Of a stretch of DNA of 64,000 bases, positions 630 to 61,689 are shown piece after piece. Within the stretch, counting starts at the first letter, position 1. Each line of letters begins with the position of its first letter. The position numbers and the translations under genes are program-made. Source of the stretch: Octopus vulgaris. Lineage: Eukaryota. The notes beneath the pieces are model-generated. The model saw nothing but the letters and a program-made list of their open reading frames with translations. It searched no databases and was not told the DNA's origin. Location of the stretch: contig OX597834.1 of NCBI GenBank assembly GCA_951406725.2, positions 7,750,001 through 7,814,000 on the forward strand. The letters run 5' to 3'.

Positions 630-687
<58 letters not shown>

Positions 688-880
688 ATTATTGAAGTAG
701 ATAAATGAATTATCTTATTACGGATCATTCAAATGATAACCGATACCTGGGTAGCAAAAACCACAACAGAAAAATCACGGTTGAGGTTACGTGCCTTAGT
801 GCTGAAATTTGAAGTTTTATATATTTAGTGTAGGGAGAAATGGAGCTGAATGAAGATTTAACAAAATTCCTTTTTATTAT

Positions 881-963
881 TTTCTACATATGTTTTAAAG
901 GCTGCAAAGTCCCTAATTCGGATTGAATAAGGAGTCCATTTTGCAGCCTTCTCTTCAGGAAAA
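881..963 (-). ncRNA. Type I hammerhead ribozyme motif of PLE1 (GAAA mutated to AAAA)
   Basis: Minus strand: ttttc CTGAAGA gaaggctgcaaa...tttgcagccttt AAAAC atat GTA gaaaa; 5-bp stem I, 11-bp stem II, palindromic stem III. Confidence 0.7.
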
Positions 964-1545
964 TCCAGGAATTTAATTCTCCAACAAAATGCACAGCAAG
1001 CTTTTCGACAAACGCTCACGAGGAGCCCATGGGATAAATGGCACAAAACTGTCTATCAATATGCGTTGACGCCAGGCTGGGTGAAAGCCGACGAAAAAGT
1101 CCGTTGAGATAATTCAAGGTCAAAATCCGGTTAAGAGGGGGGGGTAACAGGAAAATCAAAGAGTGTGAATGTATTCTGTATGACTGGTGTTAATATTCGA
1201 ATTGTTTTAAGAATGAGTGCTATAGTGTTTGAGTGTGAGAAATTGCTTTCATGTATGTGTGTGTGCGTCTATGTATGTGTTGCAGTGTGTTTAGAAGGCT
1301 GCAAGGGAGAGATATATAGCAGATATTAATGGTTAAGCAACAGAAAAGACTGTGTCTGTGTGTTCGTCTGTAACCAGTTGATAGAGAGATGGGGTGTCAA
1401 CAATGGCAGGATACAGTGACATCCCTGACAGCAGTTCTAGATAAGTAGCAGTTCTTACACTAACAGGGGAGTGATTTCCTCTTACAAATTTAATTCAAAA
1501 TTTTTTTCTTATCTTAGGAAATCAAAGGGTTAACTATCTTAGACT

Positions 1546-1761
1546 TCATTGGAATGAAGGAAATGTGTGCCGTTTCCAGTGTGGGCATCTAAAAGAATTT
1601 TGCACAATAGAGTTAACAAGTTGCCCTCGGGCGAACAGAATATGAAAGAGTTCCGAGTTGCAAAGATCACAGATTCTGTTGCCTCTATCAAACGGTAAAG
1701 ACACCGATAAAATTGACCATTCCAGTCTAAAGGTTGAATTCGCGTTCTTCAAACGCCAGGT
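1546..1761 (-). pseudogene. Penelope-like GIY-YIG endonuclease C-terminal fragment
   Basis: Non-repetitive tail of ORF 1546..2052; CxxC plus CxH motif; homologous to 7245-7394. Confidence 0.75.
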
Positions 1762-1798
1762 GCATTTTGTTGGAGAATTAAATTCCTGGATTTTCCTG

Positions 1799-1930
1799 TG
1801 TCCCTTTCTGTAGAAGAGCATAGGCTTGAAACGTAAAATAGTTTTTCTATTCCTCAGCGTTATACTAATACATCTGTTTGTTTTGTAGACCACCTGTCTT
1901 CGTCTTTTGTGTTTTTCGTAAACTCTCCCT
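1799..1930 (+). mobile_element. Family D (TA)n-associated short repeat with HHR-like core
   Basis: ctttctgtagaagagcataggcttgaaacgtaaa...aaactctccc then (TA)n; homologues at 6352-6540, 11846-12050, 28611-28812 and 29200-29385. Confidence 0.75.
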
Positions 1931-2106
<176 letters not shown>

Positions 2107-2519
2107 TTGACCTCCACATGTATGAAAGGCTACGACATAGGATGATTTCAGTACAGAACATGAAATCTAGCCGCATAATTCTACATTCAGCAATCTTCAT
2201 GTTGGTTGATGATATCAATATTCATTCTGACTTTTATTTTTCACATTTTTAATAGCATAAACCACATTTTTTCCATATTGGATCAAGGCTTCAAATTGGA
2301 AGGGTGTTGAACAGTTAATTAGAATGAGTCAAGTTCGCAAATGCTAATTATTTTATTGGTCTCCGGGCTATCAAAGGCAAATTCAACTCTAAGGTTTGGA
2401 ATCCAGAAAATTTAGTGATAAAATGATAATTGTGAGGGAGACAGTGTGAGGTGTTCCACCTTTTAAGACAATTTATTGGACTTAATATCGTTGTAGCTGT
2501 TTGTGTATGTTTTTTGCTG

Positions 2520-2797: not shown

Positions 2798-3129
2798 TGA
2801 TTGTTTTGATTCTTATTTTAGAAGTCATAAAAATTTGGGGAAGGAAAATCGATTTAGCTGATTAAACTTTTGGGGTCGGTGTAACTAATTAAATGAAACC
2901 TAGTCCCTGGCAAATTTGTATTTTATAGCCCTCGGAAAGATGAAAGACTGAATGTGACTCACGCAACATTGTTTCAGAGAATGTAAAGTGCCTCGACAAA
3001 AATACAGTTTGGCATTCGCCCTGGACTCTATTAAACGTGTCATAATATTTCTGACATCAAATCCCGGACATGTGTTGATTAGAAAGTAGATTTTATTTAA
3101 CAGCAGGAAACGACTGGTTGTTATATACC

Positions 3130-3571
3130 CTTTTACTCTCTTTTACTCTTTTACTTGTTTCAGTCATTTGACTGCGACCATGCTGGAGCACCGCATTTTT
3201 AATCGAGCAACTCGACCCCGGGACTTATTCCTTTTTTGTAAGCCCTGTACTTATTCCTTTTTTGTAAGCCCGGTACTTATTATATCGGTCTCTTTTGCCG
3301 AACCGCTAAGTAACGAGGACATAAACGCATCAGCATCGGTTGTCAAGCAATGCTAGGGGGACAAACACAGACACACAAACACAAACACACACACGCGCAT
3401 ATATATACGACGGGCTTCTTTCAGTTTCCATCTACCAAATCCACTCACAAGGCATTGGTCGGCCCGAGGCTATAGTAGAAGACACTTGCCCAAGGTGCCA
3501 CGCAGTGGGACTGAACCCGCAACCATGTGGTTGGTTAGCAAGCTACTTACCATACAGCCACTCCTGCGCCT
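3130..3571 (-). mobile_element. SINE family A, full length
   Basis: Head aggcgcaggagtggctg through tail gactgaaacaagtaaaagag on the minus strand; small internal duplication near 3224-3271. Confidence 0.9.
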
Positions 3572-4751
3572 TTTTTTTTTAGTTGAGGGAGATAATCAAA
3601 AGTACCGATATTTCACATAAAACCTGGGGAGATAACCCAATTTCCTTAATGGGGGTGAGATAATCATAAAATACCGAGAGTCCTTCAAAACTAAAGTTAT
3701 TTTTTCCCGGAAAATTTCAGTCAGGGCATATTTCACCGGGATATAGCCCTGATTACCACCACTACGATAATAAACGTTGCAGTTGTGCTTGCTATTTACC
3801 AAAGTCGTAGTCGTATTAGAAGGACAGTGGTCAGTTACTTGAGGCAGTAATGTAGTTTGGCTGCAAGGCATTATGGAATCTGTTGGAACGTCGCTAACTG
3901 CAAAATCATCTTGTGGTCTTTCATAATTCACATTATCGTTTTTGTTTATAGAGTAGGGAAGAAGGTAAATTTTCGATTTCTTAATAAAGTTAAAGTTACT
4001 AACCTTTCTCCTATATTCTACAAATGTTGCTTATTGGCGTAGTTGATTCGTAGAAAAATGATTTAATTCTCGATGCAGATCGTCCAAATATAATTTTAGT
4101 CGATTCATATAGCTTAGAGCGGGGCTTTCTTTCGCATATTTTGTAGCATTTAAATAGATCAGTTGGATCGAAAATCACTATAATCGTAAATAAAAGGCTC
4201 CCTCAGTTAATTAGTCTGAAGATTAACCAGTTATTTAACAAGGCTGATAATTGTGGGTCCAGAATTGGAGATAGTATTCATCGTATTTTCGCTAAATAAT
4301 CTTCCACGCCAAATACGCGACTTGTCACTTCGAGATATGTATTATATAGGTTAGTATGTATATATGTATGTACTGCTATATATGCACAAATATATGTGTT
4401 TGTGTGAGCATATGTGTCTGTGAGCTTGTGTGCATTATAGACGGGATAGCAGAAAGACACAACTGTTTCAAAATATATGTGTGAGTTCTGGAAGTAAATG
4501 AAGAACGCTAAATTATAGAAGATGCCCTGCCGCTTGCATTTTTAATTCTGCCATTAGCAAACCTATCAGTTATAAATCATATGAACTGTTGAACTGCATC
4601 AAGGTCACTGTTTCTTAAAGAAATAGATTATCGATCAAATTCGTGACTGGTATGACAGATGATTCAGAGAATTTTGAACTTGGGAGTAAAATGAATATAA
4701 AATTAGTCACAGGTACATTAAAGACTGAGAGAATTCATCAAAAGACTATAT

Positions 4752-5085: not shown

Positions 5086-5160
<75 letters not shown>

Positions 5161-5171
5161 ATATATATGTA

Positions 5172-5221
<50 letters not shown>

Positions 5222-5224
<3 letters not shown>

Positions 5225-5381
5225 GAGTGGCTGTGTGGTAAGTAGCTTGCTAACCAACCACATGGTTCCGGGTTCAGTCCACTGCGTGGCATCTTGGGCA
5301 AGTTTCTTCTGCTATAGCCCCGGGCCGACCAATGCCTTGTGAGTGGATTTGGTAGACGGAAACTGAAAGAAGCCTGTCGTA

Positions 5382-5436
<55 letters not shown>

Positions 5437-5660
5437 TTGTGTGTCTGTGTTTGTCCCCCTAGCATTGCTTGACAACCGATGCTGGTGTGTTTACGTCCCC
5501 GTCACTTAGCGATTCGGCAAAAGAGACCGATAGAATAAGTACTGGGCTTACAAAGAATAAGTCCCGGGGTCGATTTGCTCGACTAAAGGCGGTGCTCCAG
5601 CATGGCCGCAGTCAAATGACTGAAACAAGTAAAAGAGAGTAAAGAGAAAGAGAAAGAGAT
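5222..5660 (+). mobile_element. SINE family A, near full length
   Basis: A-box-like tggctgtgtgg, B-box-like ggttcagtcc, internal (TA)n/(TG)n, purine-rich repeat tail. Confidence 0.92.
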
Positions 5661-5892
5661 ATATATGTGTTTGTGTGTATATATATGGGGAGTGTAAAAG
5701 TAGGTAAACAGTAAGTATCACATGAATGTCATAAAGCTCAATTCATTAACTTAGCCTCATTTCTGGTATTTTCAGTGTCATTAATCATAATGTTACATTT
5801 CTTATAACTATGATAAAGCATTGGTCGTTAATTCTAATCTGTTTCACAAAAATAAATGAGTATTTTCATAATTTTATGTATACTTTTGCTCC

Positions 5893-6301: not shown

Positions 6302-6344
6302 TCTTTTACTCTTTTACTTGTTTCAGCCATCCGGCTGAGGCCAT
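6301..6344 (-). mobile_element. SINE A-type 3' tail fragment with variant hairpin
   Basis: Minus strand: atggcctcagccggatggctgaaacaagtaaaagagtaaaagag. Confidence 0.65.
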
Positions 6345-6351
6345 ATATATA

Positions 6352-6540
6352 TCGCCGAGATAGATCGTTAGCCACTACACACATTTTTTTCTCTTCTTTT
6401 TTTTTCTGTGTCCCTTTCTGTAGAAGAGCGAAGGATCGAAACGTAAAAGACTTTTTTCTATTCCTGAGCGCTATACTAATACATCTGTTTGTTTAGTACA
6501 CTACCTGTCTTTGTCGTTTGTTTTTTCGGAAAATTTCCAT
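6352..6540 (+). mobile_element. Family D (TA)n-associated repeat
   Basis: gatagatcgttagccactacacac...ctgtagaagagcgaaggatcgaaacgtaaaag... Confidence 0.75.
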
Positions 6541-6680: not shown

Positions 6681-6774
<94 letters not shown>

Positions 6775-6816
6775 ATGAAAGAATGGAGTCGAACGACGAT
6801 TTAACAAAATTCCTTT

Positions 6817-6899
6817 ATTCTCTACACATGTTTCGAAGACTGCATATTCTTAATTCCAAAGGAATAAAGGGTGCATTATGCCGTCTTCTCATCAGGAAT
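6817..6899 (-). ncRNA. Type I hammerhead ribozyme motif in PLE2 inverted pLTR, core intact
   Basis: Minus strand: attc CTGATGA gaagacggcat...atgcagtcttc GAAAC atgt GTA gagaat. Confidence 0.75.
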
Positions 6900-7244
6900 G
6901 ACAAGGAACTTATGTCAGCATCATGACGAACAAAAACTTTTAGATGACTGCCCACACGGAGCCCATAGTGATAATGAGTGTTTCTTTAAAATATTCCGTT
7001 ATAAGCAGTGACGTCAAAATTGTTTGGATGGATAAGATTCTAAAAAGTTAAAGAGTTCAAAAATGGTTGGAAGGGGCAAGTTCTAAGAATAGGAGGGTGA
7101 CAGAGTGCAAGACGTATGTATGGTGATGCGTTGTTGTTTGCTTTTGCCAATGAGATTGAGTGCCTATGTGTGTGTATGTATATAACTGCATTCGTGTCTA
7201 TGTGTGTGTATATGTGTGCGTGATAAGGGCAGAAAATATTCTGC

Positions 7245-7394
7245 CCTTTTGATAAGGGCAGAAAATATTGTGCCGTCTGTAATTCCGAGCTTTTCTATAT
7301 ACTCTTCGCCAAATTCCCTTTGGTAAACACAATGGTAGAAAAATCCTATAGGTGCATGCACTGGCAGAAACACACCTTCCACTCATATGAATGA
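7245..7394 (+). pseudogene. Penelope-like GIY-YIG endonuclease C-terminal fragment (missing from ORF track, under 60 aa)
   Basis: Hand translation aligns without gaps to the PLE1 peptide: PFD.G...C..CNSELF.ILFA...LVN..V..S.RC.HW..HTF.S. Confidence 0.8.
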
Positions 7395-8004
7395 TGATTA
7401 ATATAGATAACCTCCTTGAATTTAATAATTTGGTTCCACATCTACAACAACACCATAGACAAAACTTTTTTTATACTCCGTTACTTGAAGGCCTACTACC
7501 AAATTCGTTGGGGTATGTTCTACCTTTGTCTCTCTACCTCTCCCCCTCTCTCTCTCTACCTCTCCCCCTCTCTCTCTCTCTCTCTCCCTCTCTCTATTAT
7601 AAGCACAATCAAACACACAGAAACAAACCTGTCACTTCACCACTAGTTGTGTTTGGCATTTATCCCCCCCCCACCCAAACAATCACGCACACATATACAC
7701 ACACAGACACGAATGCAGTTATATACATACACACACATAGGCACTCAATCTCATTGGCAAAAGCATACAACAACGCATCACCATACATACGACTTGCACT
7801 CTGTCATCCCCCTATTCTTAGAACTTTCCCCTTCCAACCATTTTTGAACTCTTTAACTTTTTAGAATCTTATCCATCCATACAAGTTTGACGTCACTGCT
7901 TATAACGGAATATTTTAAAGAAACACTAATTATCGCTATGGGCTCCGTGTGGGCAGACATCTAAATGTTTTTGTTCATCATGATGCTGACATAAGTTTCT
8001 TGTC

Positions 8005-8087
8005 TTTCGTGATGAGAAGACGGCATAATGCACCCTTTATTCCTTCGGAATTAAGAATATGCAGTCTTCGAAACATGTGTCGAGAAT
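8005..8087 (+). ncRNA. Type I hammerhead ribozyme motif in PLE2 3' pLTR (C3 mutated to G)
   Basis: tttc GTGATGA gaagac...gtcttc GAAAC atgt GTC gagaa. Confidence 0.65.
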
Positions 8088-8279
8088 AAAGGAATTTTGT
8101 TAAATCGTCGTTCGACTCCATTCTTTCATTTATCTATAGTAAAAAAACACACACATTTCCACACGAAAGCACGTGATTTCTGCCCTTGGCATGTAGCTTC
8201 AACCGTGCTTTCTGACGTAAATTTGCTACCCGAGTATCGGTTAACCGAATTATCCATACTAGGATAATTCATTCAACTA

Positions 8280-8349
<70 letters not shown>

Positions 8350-8466
8350 TAGTTGAATATATATATATATCTGTAAATGTAATATGTGACAATTATTCGG
8401 TAGCCATGATAAAAGTCCGAGTTTCGGATGTCGAGGTGGAAATCCACGCCGCCATATCTTAAATTA

Positions 8467-9815: not shown

Positions 9816-10234
9816 ACTGGGACACAACAGAATTGTTCCTGCGCCGGATTTAGGATGGTAGAATTCTTGCAAGTGACAGCTTCTTACAAATAGGAATGAA
9901 ATGTCGTTGAATATTTCCATTTCTTCACGTTGCTGCCGCTATAAGTAGAAAATTTCTTTATGTTGTTAAATGTGATTTATTATCAAATGAATTTTTAATC
10001 AGTTATTTCATCTTCAACATTGATACCTTCGTATATTGTGAGTTTTGCAAAAGAAGGTTCAGGGAGGAATTGTTGTTTGGTTGAACTTAAGACACTTAAG
10101 GTTGTGCTAGGCCTTAAATCTGCATTACAATCATCATTACACAAATGTGGATCTAACAAACGAACGTCTCAGATTCGCAAATGAGTTGGATCACAATTAT
10201 ATTCAGGATAAACTACCAGTAAAAAAAAAAGTAT

Positions 10235-10648
10235 CTTGCTAACCAGCCACATGGTTCCGGGTTCAGTCCCCCTGCGTGGCATCTTGGGCAAGTGTCTTCT
10301 GCTATAGCCCCGGGCCGACCAATGCCTTGTGAGTGGATTTGGTAGACGGAAACTGAAAGAAGCCTGTCGTATATATGTATATATATATATATATGTGTGT
10401 ATATGTTTGTGTGTCTGTGCTTGTCCCGGTAGCATTGCTTGACAACCGATGCTGGTGTGTTTACGTCCCAGTCACTTAGCGGTTCGGCAAAAGAGACCGA
10501 TAGAATAAGTAATGGGCTTACAAAGAATAAGTCCCGGGGTCGATTTGCTCGACTAAAGGCGGTGCTCCAGCATGGCCGCAGTCAAATGACTGAAACAAGT
10601 AAAAGAGTAAAGAGTAAAGAGTAAAGAGTAAAGAGTAAAGAGTAAGAG
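10235..10648 (+). mobile_element. SINE family A, 5'-truncated, (AAAGAGT)n tail
   Basis: Near-identical to 5222-5660. Confidence 0.9.
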
Positions 10649-25812: not shown

Positions 25813-25855
<43 letters not shown>

Positions 25856-26325
25856 TGAATGATTATCCTAGTATGGATAATTCGGTTAACCGATACCCGG
25901 GTAGCAAATTCACGTCAGAAAAACACGGTTGAAGCTACATGCCAAGGGCAGAGATCACGTGCTTTCGTGTGGAAATTTGTGTGTTTTTTTAATACAAATA
26001 AATGAAAGAATATATGTCGAGAATAAAGGAATTTTGTTAAATCGTCGTTCAACTCCATTCTTTCATTTATATATATATATATATATATACACATATGTGT
26101 GTGTGTGTGTCTTTGTGTCTGTGTTTGTCCCACCATCATCGGTTGACAACCAATGTTGAAGTGTTCACGTCCCCGTAACTTAACGATTCGTCAAATTAGA
26201 CAGCTTAAGTACAAGACCTATAGAGAATAAGTACTTGGGTCTATTCCTTCAAATAAAAAACATTCATGGCGGTGCCCAAGAATGGCCATTGTCGAATGTC
26301 TAAAACAAGTAAAAGAATAAAAGAA
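25645..26325 (+). mobile_element. SINE family A split by an insertion in its internal (TA)n
   Basis: 5' half 25645-25813, 3' half about 26095-26325. Confidence 0.8.
25852..26070 (-). mobile_element. Miniature PLE2-family insertion (3' tail plus inverted pLTR piece)
   Basis: 25852-26011 is the reverse complement of about 8120-8276; 26012-26070 is a direct copy of about 8075-8133. Confidence 0.85.
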
Positions 26326-28609: not shown

Positions 28610-28809
28610 AGGGAGAGTTTACGGAAAAAAAACAAAAGACGAAGACGGGTGGTGTATAAAACAAACAGATGTATTAGTATAACGTTCAGGAATAGAAAAA
28701 AGTCTTTTACCTTACGAGCCTACGCTCTTCTACAGAAAAGGACAGAAAAAACAAGGAGAAAAACACGGAAAGAAAAACTGTGTGTAATGGCTAACGATCT
28801 ATCATGGCG

Positions 28810-28865
<56 letters not shown>

Positions 28866-29425
28866 AAACATTATATATAAAAAAAATACAAAATGGGACA
28901 AGAACGCAAAATATACAAAGAGACGACACAAAAAACGGACGGGTCATTCGAAGCCTCTAATCTTCAGTCAGGAACCGGATCATCCTAGCAAATTTCGGCT
29001 GATTAATCCTGATATAACTCCGATTCGGCCAGCCCCAAGGAAAAACTAAGCTGTGAGCATCGGAATTCTTGGAAAAAGGATCGAATGTATACGGAACGAG
29101 GACAGAAAAAGGGACGATGCCACACGAATATAAATACAAAAAACAAAAATAAAATTAAAGGAAGAATGGTAATAACAGGACAAAAACAGCATGCCATGTT
29201 GAATCGCTAGCTTCTGCACGCATTTTTTCTCTCCTTGCTTTTCTGTGTATCTTTCTGTTGAAGAGCGTAGGCTCGAAACGTAAAATACTTGTTTTATTTA
29301 TATTCCTGAGCGCCATACTAATACAATTGTTTCTTTGTACTTCACCTGCCTTCGTCTTTTGTTTATTTTCATAAAGCTTCCCGTTATATATATATGTATA
29401 TATATATATGACCATTCCGAAATAT

Positions 29426-29712: not shown

Positions 29713-30351
29713 GAAGAGTATATACACCCCATACACACGTATCTCTTTTTCTCTCTCTCCCTGTGTGTGTGTTTGTGTGTGTGTCTGTGTGTATGTGTGT
29801 ATGTGTGTATGTGTGTCTGTGTGTGGTACAAGAATGGATGTACGTATGTGTTTTTTCGCGCTAGCGTTCTATTTCTTTTGCGGATTAGTTACTGCAGAAA
29901 ATTTATTTCATGAAAATAGAGCACGGTACCGGCAAAAGAATTACTAAATATTTATGAAAAATGGAAATCAATGTAATTGATTGATTTTATCATAATTTTT
30001 TTAAAGACCATCTTGTAAAAAAAAGTACAAGTGAACTGCACTAAACGAGAAATATATTTACAAATTATACGATTACTTTTGTACTTTCTTTTTAATCGCA
30101 AACTTATGTCAGCTGGTGGAATCAATATCGTAACCTATTTACCCACTTGGAGAAGAAATAGGTTTTCACAGCACCGGGCGTAGGCGAGACTGCTACGGTA
30201 AAAGATCGGTTTCAGTTTTAGGTGGTTCTGGGTTCTATGTAATCACATGACAAGTTCAATGAGTGCATCCTACTGGTGAGTTCAGTTATCTAAATCATAA
30301 ACACACACATACACTCGCATTTATATAAATATATACTTGTTATATATAAAC

Positions 30352-30738
30352 AGGCGCAGGAGTGGCTGTGTGGTAAGTAGCTTGCTAACCAACCACATGG
30401 TTCCGGGTTCAGTCCCACTGCGTGGCATCTTGGGCATGTGTCTTCTGCTATAGCCCCGGGCCGACCAATGCTTTGTGAGTGGATTTGGTAGACGGAAACT
30501 GAAAGAAGCCTGTCGTATATATGTATATGTATATATATATGTATGTGTGTGTTTGTGTGTCTGTGTTTGTCCCCCTAGCATTGCTTGCCAACCGATGCTG
30601 GTGTGTTTACATCCCCGTCACTAAGCGGTTCGGCAAAAAAGACCGATAGAATAAGTACTGGGCTTACAAAGAATAAGTCCCGGGGTCGATTAGCTCGACT
30701 AAAGGCGGTGCTCCAGCATGGCCGCAGTCAAATGACTG
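30352..30738 (+). mobile_element. SINE family A
   Basis: Full head aggcgcaggagtggctgtgtgg through cagtcaaatgactg. Confidence 0.92.
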
Positions 30739-32774: not shown

Positions 32775-33780
32775 GTATGAAAAGAGGTATGTTTGTTTGT
32801 TAGAAACAGCTTCTACTTCAGCCATCTATATATTTCCGAGAGTTTTATAAACGTTTTTTTTTATCCACTTTATTATTAGTCCTCGTGTTGTTTTCTTCTT
32901 TTATAAGTCAATTCTTTGGTTCCGCCCATGTTTCAAGACATTTCCCGTGTTATCTTCTGGCGAGATGAAACGATATTAGCGCCAACTATTATTGCCTTTT
33001 TTCTTTTCTTTTACAGTAGACATTTTTTTAATAGTTTGTTTCTCATTCGTTATCATTGATGTATGTTTCTTATTCAAATTGTTGACATCATCTGTCTTTC
33101 GGCAATCACGGAATAATGCTGACGTGATGTTTGTTCTTATTTTCTTGCTAAGATTAACTTCCATAATAAATCTTCAAGTTTTTACTTTCTGCTCGACAAA
33201 ATATAGTTGTTTTATCAACTGATGTTTGATTGATATTGTATGATATACTGCGTTACAATGTCTTCTTTCTGAATGAGTAATATATTAAGAGAAATGTACA
33301 ATTAAATCTAATCTTGCTTGCAAGCCATACTATAAAGCATACAAGATCAACGACCTTTAGTTTACCAATTCAGATATAAACTAGGATCATTACACTTCAT
33401 GTTATTAATTCATACAATGGCGACATACCTTACGACACTTTTTTTTATAATATACTAATCAGTACTGAAGGAAACCTCAGCAGACAATACCCGATTATCT
33501 CTGATGAATTTTATGTCGACTAATCCACTCTAAGTAATTATGTATTCGACTGTGTCATCTTCAGGCGATTATCTCCAGATTTTGTTATCGTGGTGGAATT
33601 TGCACAAAACGCGTGGAGTAAATACTGGAAACCAACATGTCCGATGTTGCAAAAATGTCGGCAGTTCATCGCTTTAGACTAGTATTTTATTTAGCGTTCC
33701 AGAACGAATACAAAATAAGTAAAAGACGTCTTTAATGTAGTTTTCGTGAAATGAATCGGTGTCAAAACTGCATGTGTTAT

Positions 33781-34186
33781 AGGCGCAGGAGTGGCTGTAG
33801 TAAGTAGCTTGTTTACCAACCACATGGTTCCGGGTTCAGTCCCACTGCGTGGCACCTTGGGCAAGTGTCTTCTACTATAGCCTCGGGCTGACCAAAGCCT
33901 TGTGAGTGGATTTGGTAGACGGAAACTGAAAGAAGCCCGTAGTATATATATATATGTATGTGTATGTGTGTGTGTGTTTGTGTGTCTGTGTTTGTCCCCT
34001 AGGATTACTTGACAACCGATGCTGGTGTGTTTATGTCCCCGTCACTTAGCGGTTCGGCAAAAGAGACCGATAGAATAAGTACTGGGCTTACAAAGAATAA
34101 GTCCCGGTGTCAAGTTGCTCGATTAAAGGCGGTGCTCCAGCATGGCCGCAGTCAAATGACTGAAACAAGTAAAAGAGTAAAAAGAG
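33781..34186 (+). mobile_element. SINE family A, full length
   Basis: Head-to-tail match with other copies. Confidence 0.92.
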
Positions 34187-35525
34187 AGAGTGTGTTTATC
34201 CGACCTTCTAATGATTCAGAGTTCGGACACTGTGAAGAGATGACATAAGCCATAATAATGCATTAACTCACATAATGTAGACATTTGATGATGATACGTT
34301 CTGTTCAGACAAAGCGTAAATCTATTCTGGTTAAAATAGAAAGATCTGAAGAAATACATCACAAAATAAATGAACGGATTTCTAAAGACGTTCGTAAATT
34401 GTCAGGTTTTGTTTCAAAAGTTTCACTAACTTTTTACAATTTGTTACAAAGAAAAACTCTTATGTCGAGGAAAGGGTCCTGTTGTTAGCAATGAGTAAAG
34501 TACATTGAATAGTGCTGTTCTACGAACGTAACTTAACCTGACTTGCTCCTCTTCTTCTAACGCTCTTGGAGGTCTTGTGGTAAAAATCGTGATCGATATT
34601 TTTTCTTATTCTGTAGATAGTGCATTCTAGCTTTGCCAAATTTTCGATTAGAAAGCGGAGACGAGTTTTTCATTGTTGCATTTAATTTGTTGCTAATAGT
34701 ATCTGCCACTCGTATCTGAAGGAATTTGACTTGGTTTACACAATGTTTACAATACAAATGTTAATATATGCTATTTTCTTTTATAGTTCCAGTGCTTATA
34801 GAGAAGATCTATGATAGAAGTCATTCCAGTTGTGACATAGTTGATCTTCACGCTGCCATAAAATTTCCTCGGACATAATTATCCAGTAGATATTTTTTTG
34901 TTTTTAAGGGACCAAATATTGAGTTAAAGCGGGGCGATTACATAGACTTTACTTCGCTAGCGACAGAAGTGTTTAATCAAACTGGCATCAAACCTGAAAT
35001 ATAAGAAAAAGAAGGCAAGAATTGTCAAAATCTATTAATTTTACAATTTGGTTCCATCTAAGCAACTCACTAAAACGAAGATATGACGAGCCGATGAGGG
35101 AGCATAAAATCCCTGCAAAAACGAAAAAGGGAAGGTTCCTGAAAATAATCTCTCTTATGTAAAAAAAACGCAGAAGAAACTCAATATTGTGGTTACAGAT
35201 AATGGAAAAGTTGAGGTGAACACAGCTGTAAAGTTTTTATTTATGCCTCATAGAGCTGATCTGATCCTAAATACAAACAGGGTCAATAACACATATTCAA
35301 AACAATTCACACGTTCATCTTTCCACTAAAATTCCACAATCCGTGAAACCTGATTGTTCTCTTTACTATTGTTCATATTTTTCATTATTTTATTTCTATA
35401 CTGATGCACGCTTTTGAGGTGAGGAATGTGATAGTTACCTGTCCCTCTCAAAATGTAGATTTATCAGCTACAGTAGCAACAGCAGCAGTAGCAGCAATAG
35501 CAGCAGTAGCAGCAGCAGCGGAATG

Positions 35526-47634: not shown

Positions 47635-50262
<2,628 letters not shown>

Positions 50263-60901: not shown

Positions 60902-61622
60902 CGGCGTACGTATACTTTGGTTCCTTATATTTAAGTGTATATTTATCTAACACTTCTAGAACTCTATTCATTTATTTCTTTTTTCCCTTCCTTCTATCAG
61001 CCCTTTCACGCTTACTTCGTTCATTCCACTCTTCGTTCTTTCGTTCTCCCTCTCCCACATTTCATTGACTTCTCTTCATGCTCACTTTTCCTCCTCACTT
61101 CACTGTGTCCCTGTCATTTTTTCTCGCCCCTCCTTATTTCTTCTGTCCCTCTGCCTCTACCTCTCTCTCTTCTCACCGTACGTGATCGGTGTTCGGCCAA
61201 CACTGACCTTTCTTTCTGGGTTTCGACGCTGGTCATGCAACATCTGTATTCTTCCCTGTACCTGTGAAATCTGTATCCCTGCCGTAAGGCTTTACTTCCG
61301 CACATGCCAGCTTAATTTAATTCTTCCTTAGTCGAAAGGCACCTCTTGTTATGTCATGTTATTTGTATTTGTGTAATATTCTCCGTTTTTCTCCGTCCTT
61401 GTTTTCGTATACATTCGCTCCTTTCTTCCAAGGAATCTAATGCTCCTAGTTTAGTTTTTCCTTGGGGCTGGCCAGATTGGGGCAATCTCGAGTATAACCA
61501 GCCGAAATTGCAAAGATGATCTGAAACTCGACTGAGGAAAGACAACTCCGCATGCCCCGACCTTGTTTTCTTTGTATCCTCTATCTGGATGTTTTCGTTC
61601 TTGTCCCATTTTGTATTTTTTT
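60901..61622 (+). mobile_element. Family E (TA)n-associated repeat, longer copy
   Basis: Last ~270 bp homologous to 28865-29150; (TA)n flanks. Confidence 0.65.
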
Positions 61623-61689
61623 ATATATGCATATACATACACGTACACACATATACACACGCACGCACAAACATATATAAGTATATATA

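Follow-up and report, generated by a model that had tools for sequence, protein, structure and literature searches.

A probable Hydra-type Penelope-like retrotransposon copy with a mutated hammerhead motif and a perfect inverted cap in Octopus vulgaris

Main

In a 64,000-nucleotide stretch of Octopus vulgaris DNA (contig OX597834.1; hereafter the window), a long open reading frame (ORF) runs through a microsatellite and ends in what resembles the tail of a retrotransposon endonuclease. At the upstream limit of this tail lies a short inverted copy of the element's own 3' untranslated region (UTR), here called the cap, which is fused to a different short repeat, family D. Which element left the tail, and how did its cap come to be joined to another repeat? 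We consider it probable that the element, copy A of a family termed A, is a truncated Hydra-type Penelope-like element (PLE) with a hammerhead ribozyme (HHR) motif mutated at G12, and that the cap is the remnant of a longer inverted arm that was joined to D by a microhomology deletion.

Results

The end of a spurious ORF encodes an endonuclease tail

The frame extends from stop to stop over 1546..2166(-), and its PLE coding part occupies 1549-1758(-), that is 70 aa plus one base at 1759. An earlier note on this DNA had placed a PLE tail at the end of an ORF at 1546..2052. The last 70 aa are indeed of PLE origin, whereas the rest joins, by chance, the cap, family D and a (CA)n(TA)n microsatellite; most of the spurious length comes from the (TA)n(CA)n(TA)n microsatellite that adjoins D on its 3' side (1930..2104). 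The ORF of 169-206 aa was rejected as a gene. A phmmer search against 1.84 billion representatives returned 57 matches to the peptide at E ≤ 0.001 (best E 1.5e-8), which bears out its reading as the C terminus of a PLE GIY-YIG endonuclease (1546..1759, minus strand, truncated at 1759). The arrangement CxxC..E..N..CxH, present in 48 of the 57 matches, appears in the peptide as C30, C33, E36, N49, C58 and H60, and the same set of motifs is found in copy B, a sister-family copy elsewhere in the window. The stop codon lies 10 residues past CxH and the UTR follows. That the element at 690-1759(-) is a Penelope-like retrotransposon is, in our assessment, nearly certain.

Longer relatives place a reverse transcriptase (RT) upstream of this tail. 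A profile of 17 sequences found 1,477 proteins at E ≤ 1e-10 among 8,000 scored, and of the 121 proteins that we examined, made up of P0058, P0023 and 119 new ones, 15 are at least 580 aa long. In each of these 15, an upstream YxDD is accompanied by both C-terminal motifs and a CxC linker; DK[TS] occurs in 13 and RW[KR] in 11, DKG in none, and a DKA further on also in 4. The earlier note had named the lack of an upstream RT in longer copies as grounds for giving up its reading, and the YxDD in 15 of 15 speaks for it, these RT motifs being read in relatives, as the searches recovered no full-length family A element. A hidden Markov model of the 15 long relatives, themselves found starting from the peptide, recovered the peptide (E 1.3e-10) and copy B (E 2.5e-4) from the six-frame translated window, with the next match at 0.17. 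A structural model of relative P0078 (88-row alignment, pLDDT 86.9) matched I-TevI best (Z 10.0, rmsd 2.4, 90 aligned), followed by T4 EndoII and UvrC.

Other searches returned less. Pfam gave no GIY-YIG match for the peptide and found this domain in 3 of 8 relatives, only at E 0.001-0.017; its KDM6 GATA-like match to the peptide (E 0.03) was dismissed as chance. Neither a PDB sequence search nor a metagenome scan for the peptide gave a match. Foldseek returned none at E ≤ 0.001, although GIY-YIG nucleases ranked 1-7. Queried with the peptide, a word-index search of longer proteins yielded 7 candidates, 0 of them at E ≤ 0.01, and alignment A3 gave 0 matches in 3,473 proteins of 1,153-3,290 aa.

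Copy A is a 5'-truncated member of a multicopy family

Copy A (690-1759, minus strand) is a 5'-truncated PLE without an RT. Its 3' end adjoins a (TA)n(CA)n(TA)n microsatellite (630..689), the likely insertion target, and its 3' UTR or pseudo-LTR of ~860 nt (690..1545, minus strand) can be aligned to the 3' end of sister family B and is covered in four of four public runs. The contigs of these runs that align on 700-1860 number 5,672, 5,925, 4,410 and 611, are mostly 90-95% alike and give a depth that is not a copy number. All 30 bins of this interval are covered in all four runs, indicating that family A is multicopy. Copy A differs from nearly all other contigs at ~10 of the 40 positions listed. 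Loose contig ends at 1759 (4 contigs, X4) and 1758 (3 contigs, X2) extend the family A frame upstream, and by hand translation the extension reads GLS-x-L-(V/I)-W, a motif that precedes the tryptophan in Hydra proteins (one translation has a stop). Since other copies run past 1759, the cap is foreign to family A and 1759 is the truncation point, in agreement with the 5' truncation proposed earlier.

Protein and UTR features point to the Hydra clade

Family A very probably belongs to the Hydra clade of PLEs, judging by its sequence features. In the sections of Craig et al. 2021 available to us (PMC8557442), Hydra elements are C-terminal EN+ PLEs without CCHH, with DKT, RWK and a CxCX5C linker, with CxxC and CxH around conserved E and N, with canonical HHRs and (TA)n targets, and with a length under 3 kb; CxxC and CxH are labelled Hydra-specific there, and the Nematis, Neptune and Penelope/Poseidon rows of Fig. 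S7 are without both. At our locus the endonuclease is likewise C-terminal, ending the ORF here and following the RT in long relatives. The Hydra ending CxxC-E-N-CxH is present in the peptide and in copy B, and the 3' ends of copies A, B and C (a short family B copy) all adjoin (TA)n. Two cysteines between GIY and YIG occur in 0 of 135 relatives with the full stretch, a part that is truncated in copy A. Relative P0156 aligns with the peptide (28% over 61 aa, E 6e-9) and is, by eye, nearly identical to Hydra-2_Amil in the published excerpt at hand.

The earlier note had leaned, from recall, towards a Naiad or Nematis element. Naiads are indeed known from Octopus and target (TA)n according to the available literature, but in the accessible part of PMC8557442 their endonuclease is N-terminal and canonical HHRs are absent, whereas here the endonuclease forms the end of the ORF and the UTR after it contains an HHR motif. 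The CxxC plus CxH ending is Hydra-specific in the part of Fig. S7 consulted, and the relatives carry DK[TS] and no CCHH cysteines, making a Naiad or Nematis identity extremely improbable. Nematis, Neptune and Penelope-Poseidon were set aside on the same published rows, which lack the CxxC and CxH of the peptide. A check for in-frame UGA and SECIS (selenocysteine) is a Naiad matter and does not apply to a Hydra-type element.

A minimal hammerhead motif has lost G12 in copy A

The HHR core begins at C3 (958, minus strand), 588 nt after the stop codon, and so confirms the same-strand HHR that had been placed ~590 nt downstream, with a change at G12 that had gone unmentioned. The motif spans 881..962 (minus strand), with a predicted cleavage site at 885 (N17). 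A minimal type I HHR can be fitted to copy A and to two B copies, with a stem I of 4 bp, a stem II of 12 bp and a palindromic stem III of 3 bp with a 2-nt loop. Across these three sequences 94.7% of stem cells pair, with 2 compensatory pairs, against 33-49% in slid controls, a count whose score was reached by 56 of 500 shuffles. We thus predict a canonical HHR near the 3' end, from the motif at 881-962 in copy A and the intact core in the inverted arm of copy B; the core of B's sense copy has G at position 3. Rfam reported no hammerhead in 700-1925 or 6770-8280, nor among the window matches listed, which were microsatellite-driven microRNA matches below gathering scores, and free folding of copy A formed stem II but not the full HHR (z -2.5).

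In copy A, G12 (position 896) is A, with U at 11.1, and the other letter (G) holds essentially all depth at 896 in four of four runs (57, 28, 47 and 6 contigs). The combination of A at G12 with U at 11.1 looks like CpG decay. G12 is a proposed catalytic base of the hammerhead; with this base changed and the RT absent, copy A is likely inert.

A sister family shows full inverted arms and two 3' ends

Family B provides a larger head-to-head structure in the same window. Copy B (6767..8282, plus strand) consists of a 458-bp inverted arm (6767-7224), 95.9% identical to 7682-8137, and a sense part (7245-8282) in which the endonuclease tail and the HHR motif recur; each arm carries one HHR motif. 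The joint of copy B (7222-7270) holds a 19-nt duplication next to a short palindrome, and its 3' end (8271-8358) has a short fold-back beyond the (TA)n, forming an 88-nt perfect palindrome that includes the tract. Copy C (25816..26089) is a short head-to-head family B copy flanked by (TA)n, in which the minus part is 3' extension and the plus part runs from HHR stem III to the short end; this plus arm begins inside stem III, only a few bases short of where cleavage would occur.

The inverted arms of B and C end at the equivalent of ~839, and the sense copies are ~145 nt longer, reaching (TA)n. In copy A the extension past the short 3' end is 690..838 (minus strand), and loose contig ends at 839 comprise 44 and 21 contigs. 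Two 3' ends ~145 nt apart are found in both A and B (690-838, 8138-8282 and 25850-26011); the PLE tail is described as 30-40 bp in the literature excerpts at hand, shorter than the ~145 nt of A and B.

The cap is an exact inverted copy placed like a PLE arm

As the earlier note had observed, the cap (1760..1798, plus strand) is a perfect 39-bp inverted copy of UTR positions 956-994 (minus strand): the two are exact reverse complements (39/39), for which the chance expectation in 1.2 kb is roughly 2e-16. Both share T at 972, where C makes up 70-99% of the depth in the four runs. The place and orientation of the cap are those of the known PLE inverted arm, making it a candidate head-to-head arm stub. 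Inverted 5'-truncated copies adjoining PLE 5' ends are the rule in the published material consulted, and one is listed for the Hydra-clade element Penelope-13_HM in the portion of PMC8557442 seen.

The perfect identity, which extends to the rarer T at 972 of a copy unlike most contigs, would also suit a later templated repair insert copied from the UTR 800 bp away, with D captured through microhomology. Homology at the cap-D joint and its absence at the ORF-cap joint fit such an event too. Against it, the cap sits and points exactly as the known inverted arm does, and 39 bp of identity at a few per cent divergence is not rare (roughly 10%, by our estimate). Templated repair inserts are usually copied from nearer the break. 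We accordingly hold a repair insert to be unlikely, and the cap as a remnant of an inverted arm is the reading that we carry forward.

The cap includes the HHR core CTG (958-956) and is directly followed by family D. That it ends at this CTG, as first described, is correct; a special ribozyme meaning of the stop is weak, since CTG is common to the cap and to D's native upstream sequence. We rejected an origin of this end by HHR cleavage, since cleavage would fall at 885, well away from 956 where the cap stops. Over 1784..1798 (plus strand), the end of the cap shows imperfect microhomology with D's native upstream, with 12/15, 10/15 and 10/15 ungapped identities to the three other D copies, and family D contigs align from 1784 onward.

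Among the 32 contig pieces listed of 16,670, none bridges the ORF-cap or the cap-D joint, and PLE inverted structures are known to trouble assemblies, as the available literature has it; both points would suit an assembly chimera between repeats at the cap-D joint. We nevertheless rate a chimera as improbable, because the ORF-cap joint offers no common sequence for a mis-join, 15 imperfect bases would be short for one, and a comparably complex joint exists in copy B.

Family D carries a variant hammerhead-like motif

Family D is represented in the 64-kb window by four copies of ~190 bp that end in (TA)n. The one at our locus (1799..1929, plus strand) is without its first 50-60 nt and has an HHR-like motif at ~1803-1838 (core 1808); the others lie at 6343-6540, 28610-28823 (where GAAA is lost from the motif, at 28736) and 29195-29390. 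Core position 6 is U in 4/4 copies, a departure from the consensus CUGANGA ... GAAA. In three copies the motif takes an HHR-like form, in which an unpaired A follows A9, stem II has 4 bp and stem III is palindromic; the copy at 29255 best displays the unpaired base after A9, G10.1-C11.1, palindromic 15.2-16.2 and helix I. Taken on its sequence, the motif is at most minimal-HHR-like. A relaxed motif scan hit the window 3 times, twice in D and once in B, and 20 shuffles gave 2 hits in total; free folding of the D motif was no better than shuffles (z -1.5, -1.3 and +2.1), and a metagenome scan for the motif found none. In the available text of Perreault et al. 2011 (PMC3088659), A6C is mentioned once and A6U is absent. 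Loose contig ends fall at the motif borders, at 1803 (46 and 43 contigs) and 1838 (61, 49, 70 and 14), from which related repeats likely share the D motif and not its flanks.

Other repeats in the window include family E (28860-29195 and 61360-61640), whose 3' end adjoins (TA)n and is preceded by a stretch resembling a hammerhead core. At 29195 it meets D in a head-to-head joint from which (TA)n is absent. A SINE-like repeat of ~440 bp that contains an internal (TA)n is abundant and occurs at 1-230, 3122-3575, 5143-5665, 10229-10628, 30319-30738 and 33778-34191, among others, and a (CAT)n-type trinucleotide array at 47636-50262 covers 2.6 kb with ~870 units.

How the cap-D joint could have formed

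Following the PLE literature, the GIY-YIG nickase would cut the (TA)n tract, the RT would copy the RNA from its 3' end and stop at 1759, and a second cDNA of the same template, starting at 994, would be joined head-to-head. The inverted arm may once have extended across the HHR as far as the short 3' end near 839, and may later have lost ~120 nt to a deletion that also took the (TA)n tract and 50-60 nt of D. A full inverted arm of this kind is seen in sister copy B. Head-to-head arms, microhomology joints, microhomology deletions and template jumps are all described for PLEs in the available parts of Arkhipova et al. 2013 (PMC3846280). Considering the cap-D joint by itself, we give its origin in a later microhomology deletion of a longer arm about an even chance. 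The perfect identity of the cap with its rarer T at 972, set against the 4% between the arms of copy B, may indicate that the cap arose later or separately.

Alternatively, the cap-D joint could have been made at insertion. The RT would have copied D RNA, jumped at the common 15 nt to Hydra RNA, landed beside the HHR core, copied 39 nt and been joined to the other cDNA, and D would be a non-autonomous passenger. Such a switch would place both outer ends in (TA)n, as found, and D's minimal-HHR-like core lies 10 nt past the joint; the joint at 1796-1798 and the start of the D core at 1808 are, however, non-homologous HHR positions. A second D copy, at 29195, likewise meets a truncated repeat of another kind head-to-head, without intervening (TA)n, yet the case at hand is one locus only, and D is common (4 copies in 64 kb) and occupies the same (TA)n niche, so that the adjacency of A and D is to be expected. 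In the sections of Arkhipova et al. 2013 available to us (PMC3846280), template jumps are proposed for PLEs and cross-mobilisation between PLE types was not seen. On balance an insertion-time origin appears unlikely, though slightly less so than a repair insert. The fuller proposal, that D is an abundant non-autonomous PLE passenger with an active position-6-U hammerhead and that the joint records an RT switch between two ribozyme-bearing RNAs, is unlikely; if true, it would allow the origin of inverted ends in PLEs, which is still unexplained, to be tested at thousands of loci.

Discussion

For repeat annotation, the analysis contributes two related families of Hydra type, A and B, each having a long 3' UTR and an HHR motif; the available parts of Craig et al. 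2021 (PMC8557442) list a single cephalopod family in this clade. The wider leads are the 3' ends ~145 nt apart, the head-to-head joints between families and the position-6 variant motif of D, and genome-wide counts of joints could bear on the making of PLE inverted ends. In the literature on Octopus hammerheads, Hydra-clade PLEs and A6U hammerheads we found no published account of A, B or D. Five short motifs of A/B, D and E are absent from the supplement of PMC8557442 in the form available, in which line breaks may hide matches.

Compared with the Hydra clade as presented in the accessible parts of PMC8557442, family A has the same C-terminal GIY-YIG endonuclease with CxxC and CxH around E and N, a 3'-end HHR with the same core and a short palindromic stem III (File S2), a (TA)n target and, as in Penelope-13_HM, a 5'-truncated inverted copy at the 5' end. 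It differs from Hydra-1_Obim of Octopus bimaculoides in its tail (by eye, the final 70 aa are ~30% identical), in its 3' UTR (~860 nt versus ~205 nt) and in a longer and different HHR stem II; its 3' extension is ~145 nt where the PLE tails described in the excerpts consulted have 30-40 nt. Because Hydra-1_Obim differs in tail, UTR and HHR, A and B look like new families within Hydra when set against those in the available part of PMC8557442.

The HHR motifs resemble the minimal type I HHRs of metazoan PLEs in the available portion of Cervera and de la Pena 2014 (PMC4209133) in their short helix I, long helix II and palindromic helix III, which would need a dimer, and G10.1-C11.1 is matched in family B; the same portion reports opposite-strand HHR motif pairs 100-700 bp apart. 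Copy A departs from these HHRs in its A at G12, its U at 11.1 and its 12-bp helix II with an inner hairpin. Family D is like the non-LTR retrozymes (Cervera and de la Pena 2020, PMC7229834; Li, Clavereau and Pollet 2026 preprint) in its small size, its lack of coding sequence, its type I HHR-like motif and, possibly, its derivation from PLEs. Unlike these retrozymes, the D copies in the window are single rather than tandem, and their motif is minimal with U at core position 6. Set beside the PLE literature available to us, each structural trait of the element is already known from PLEs.
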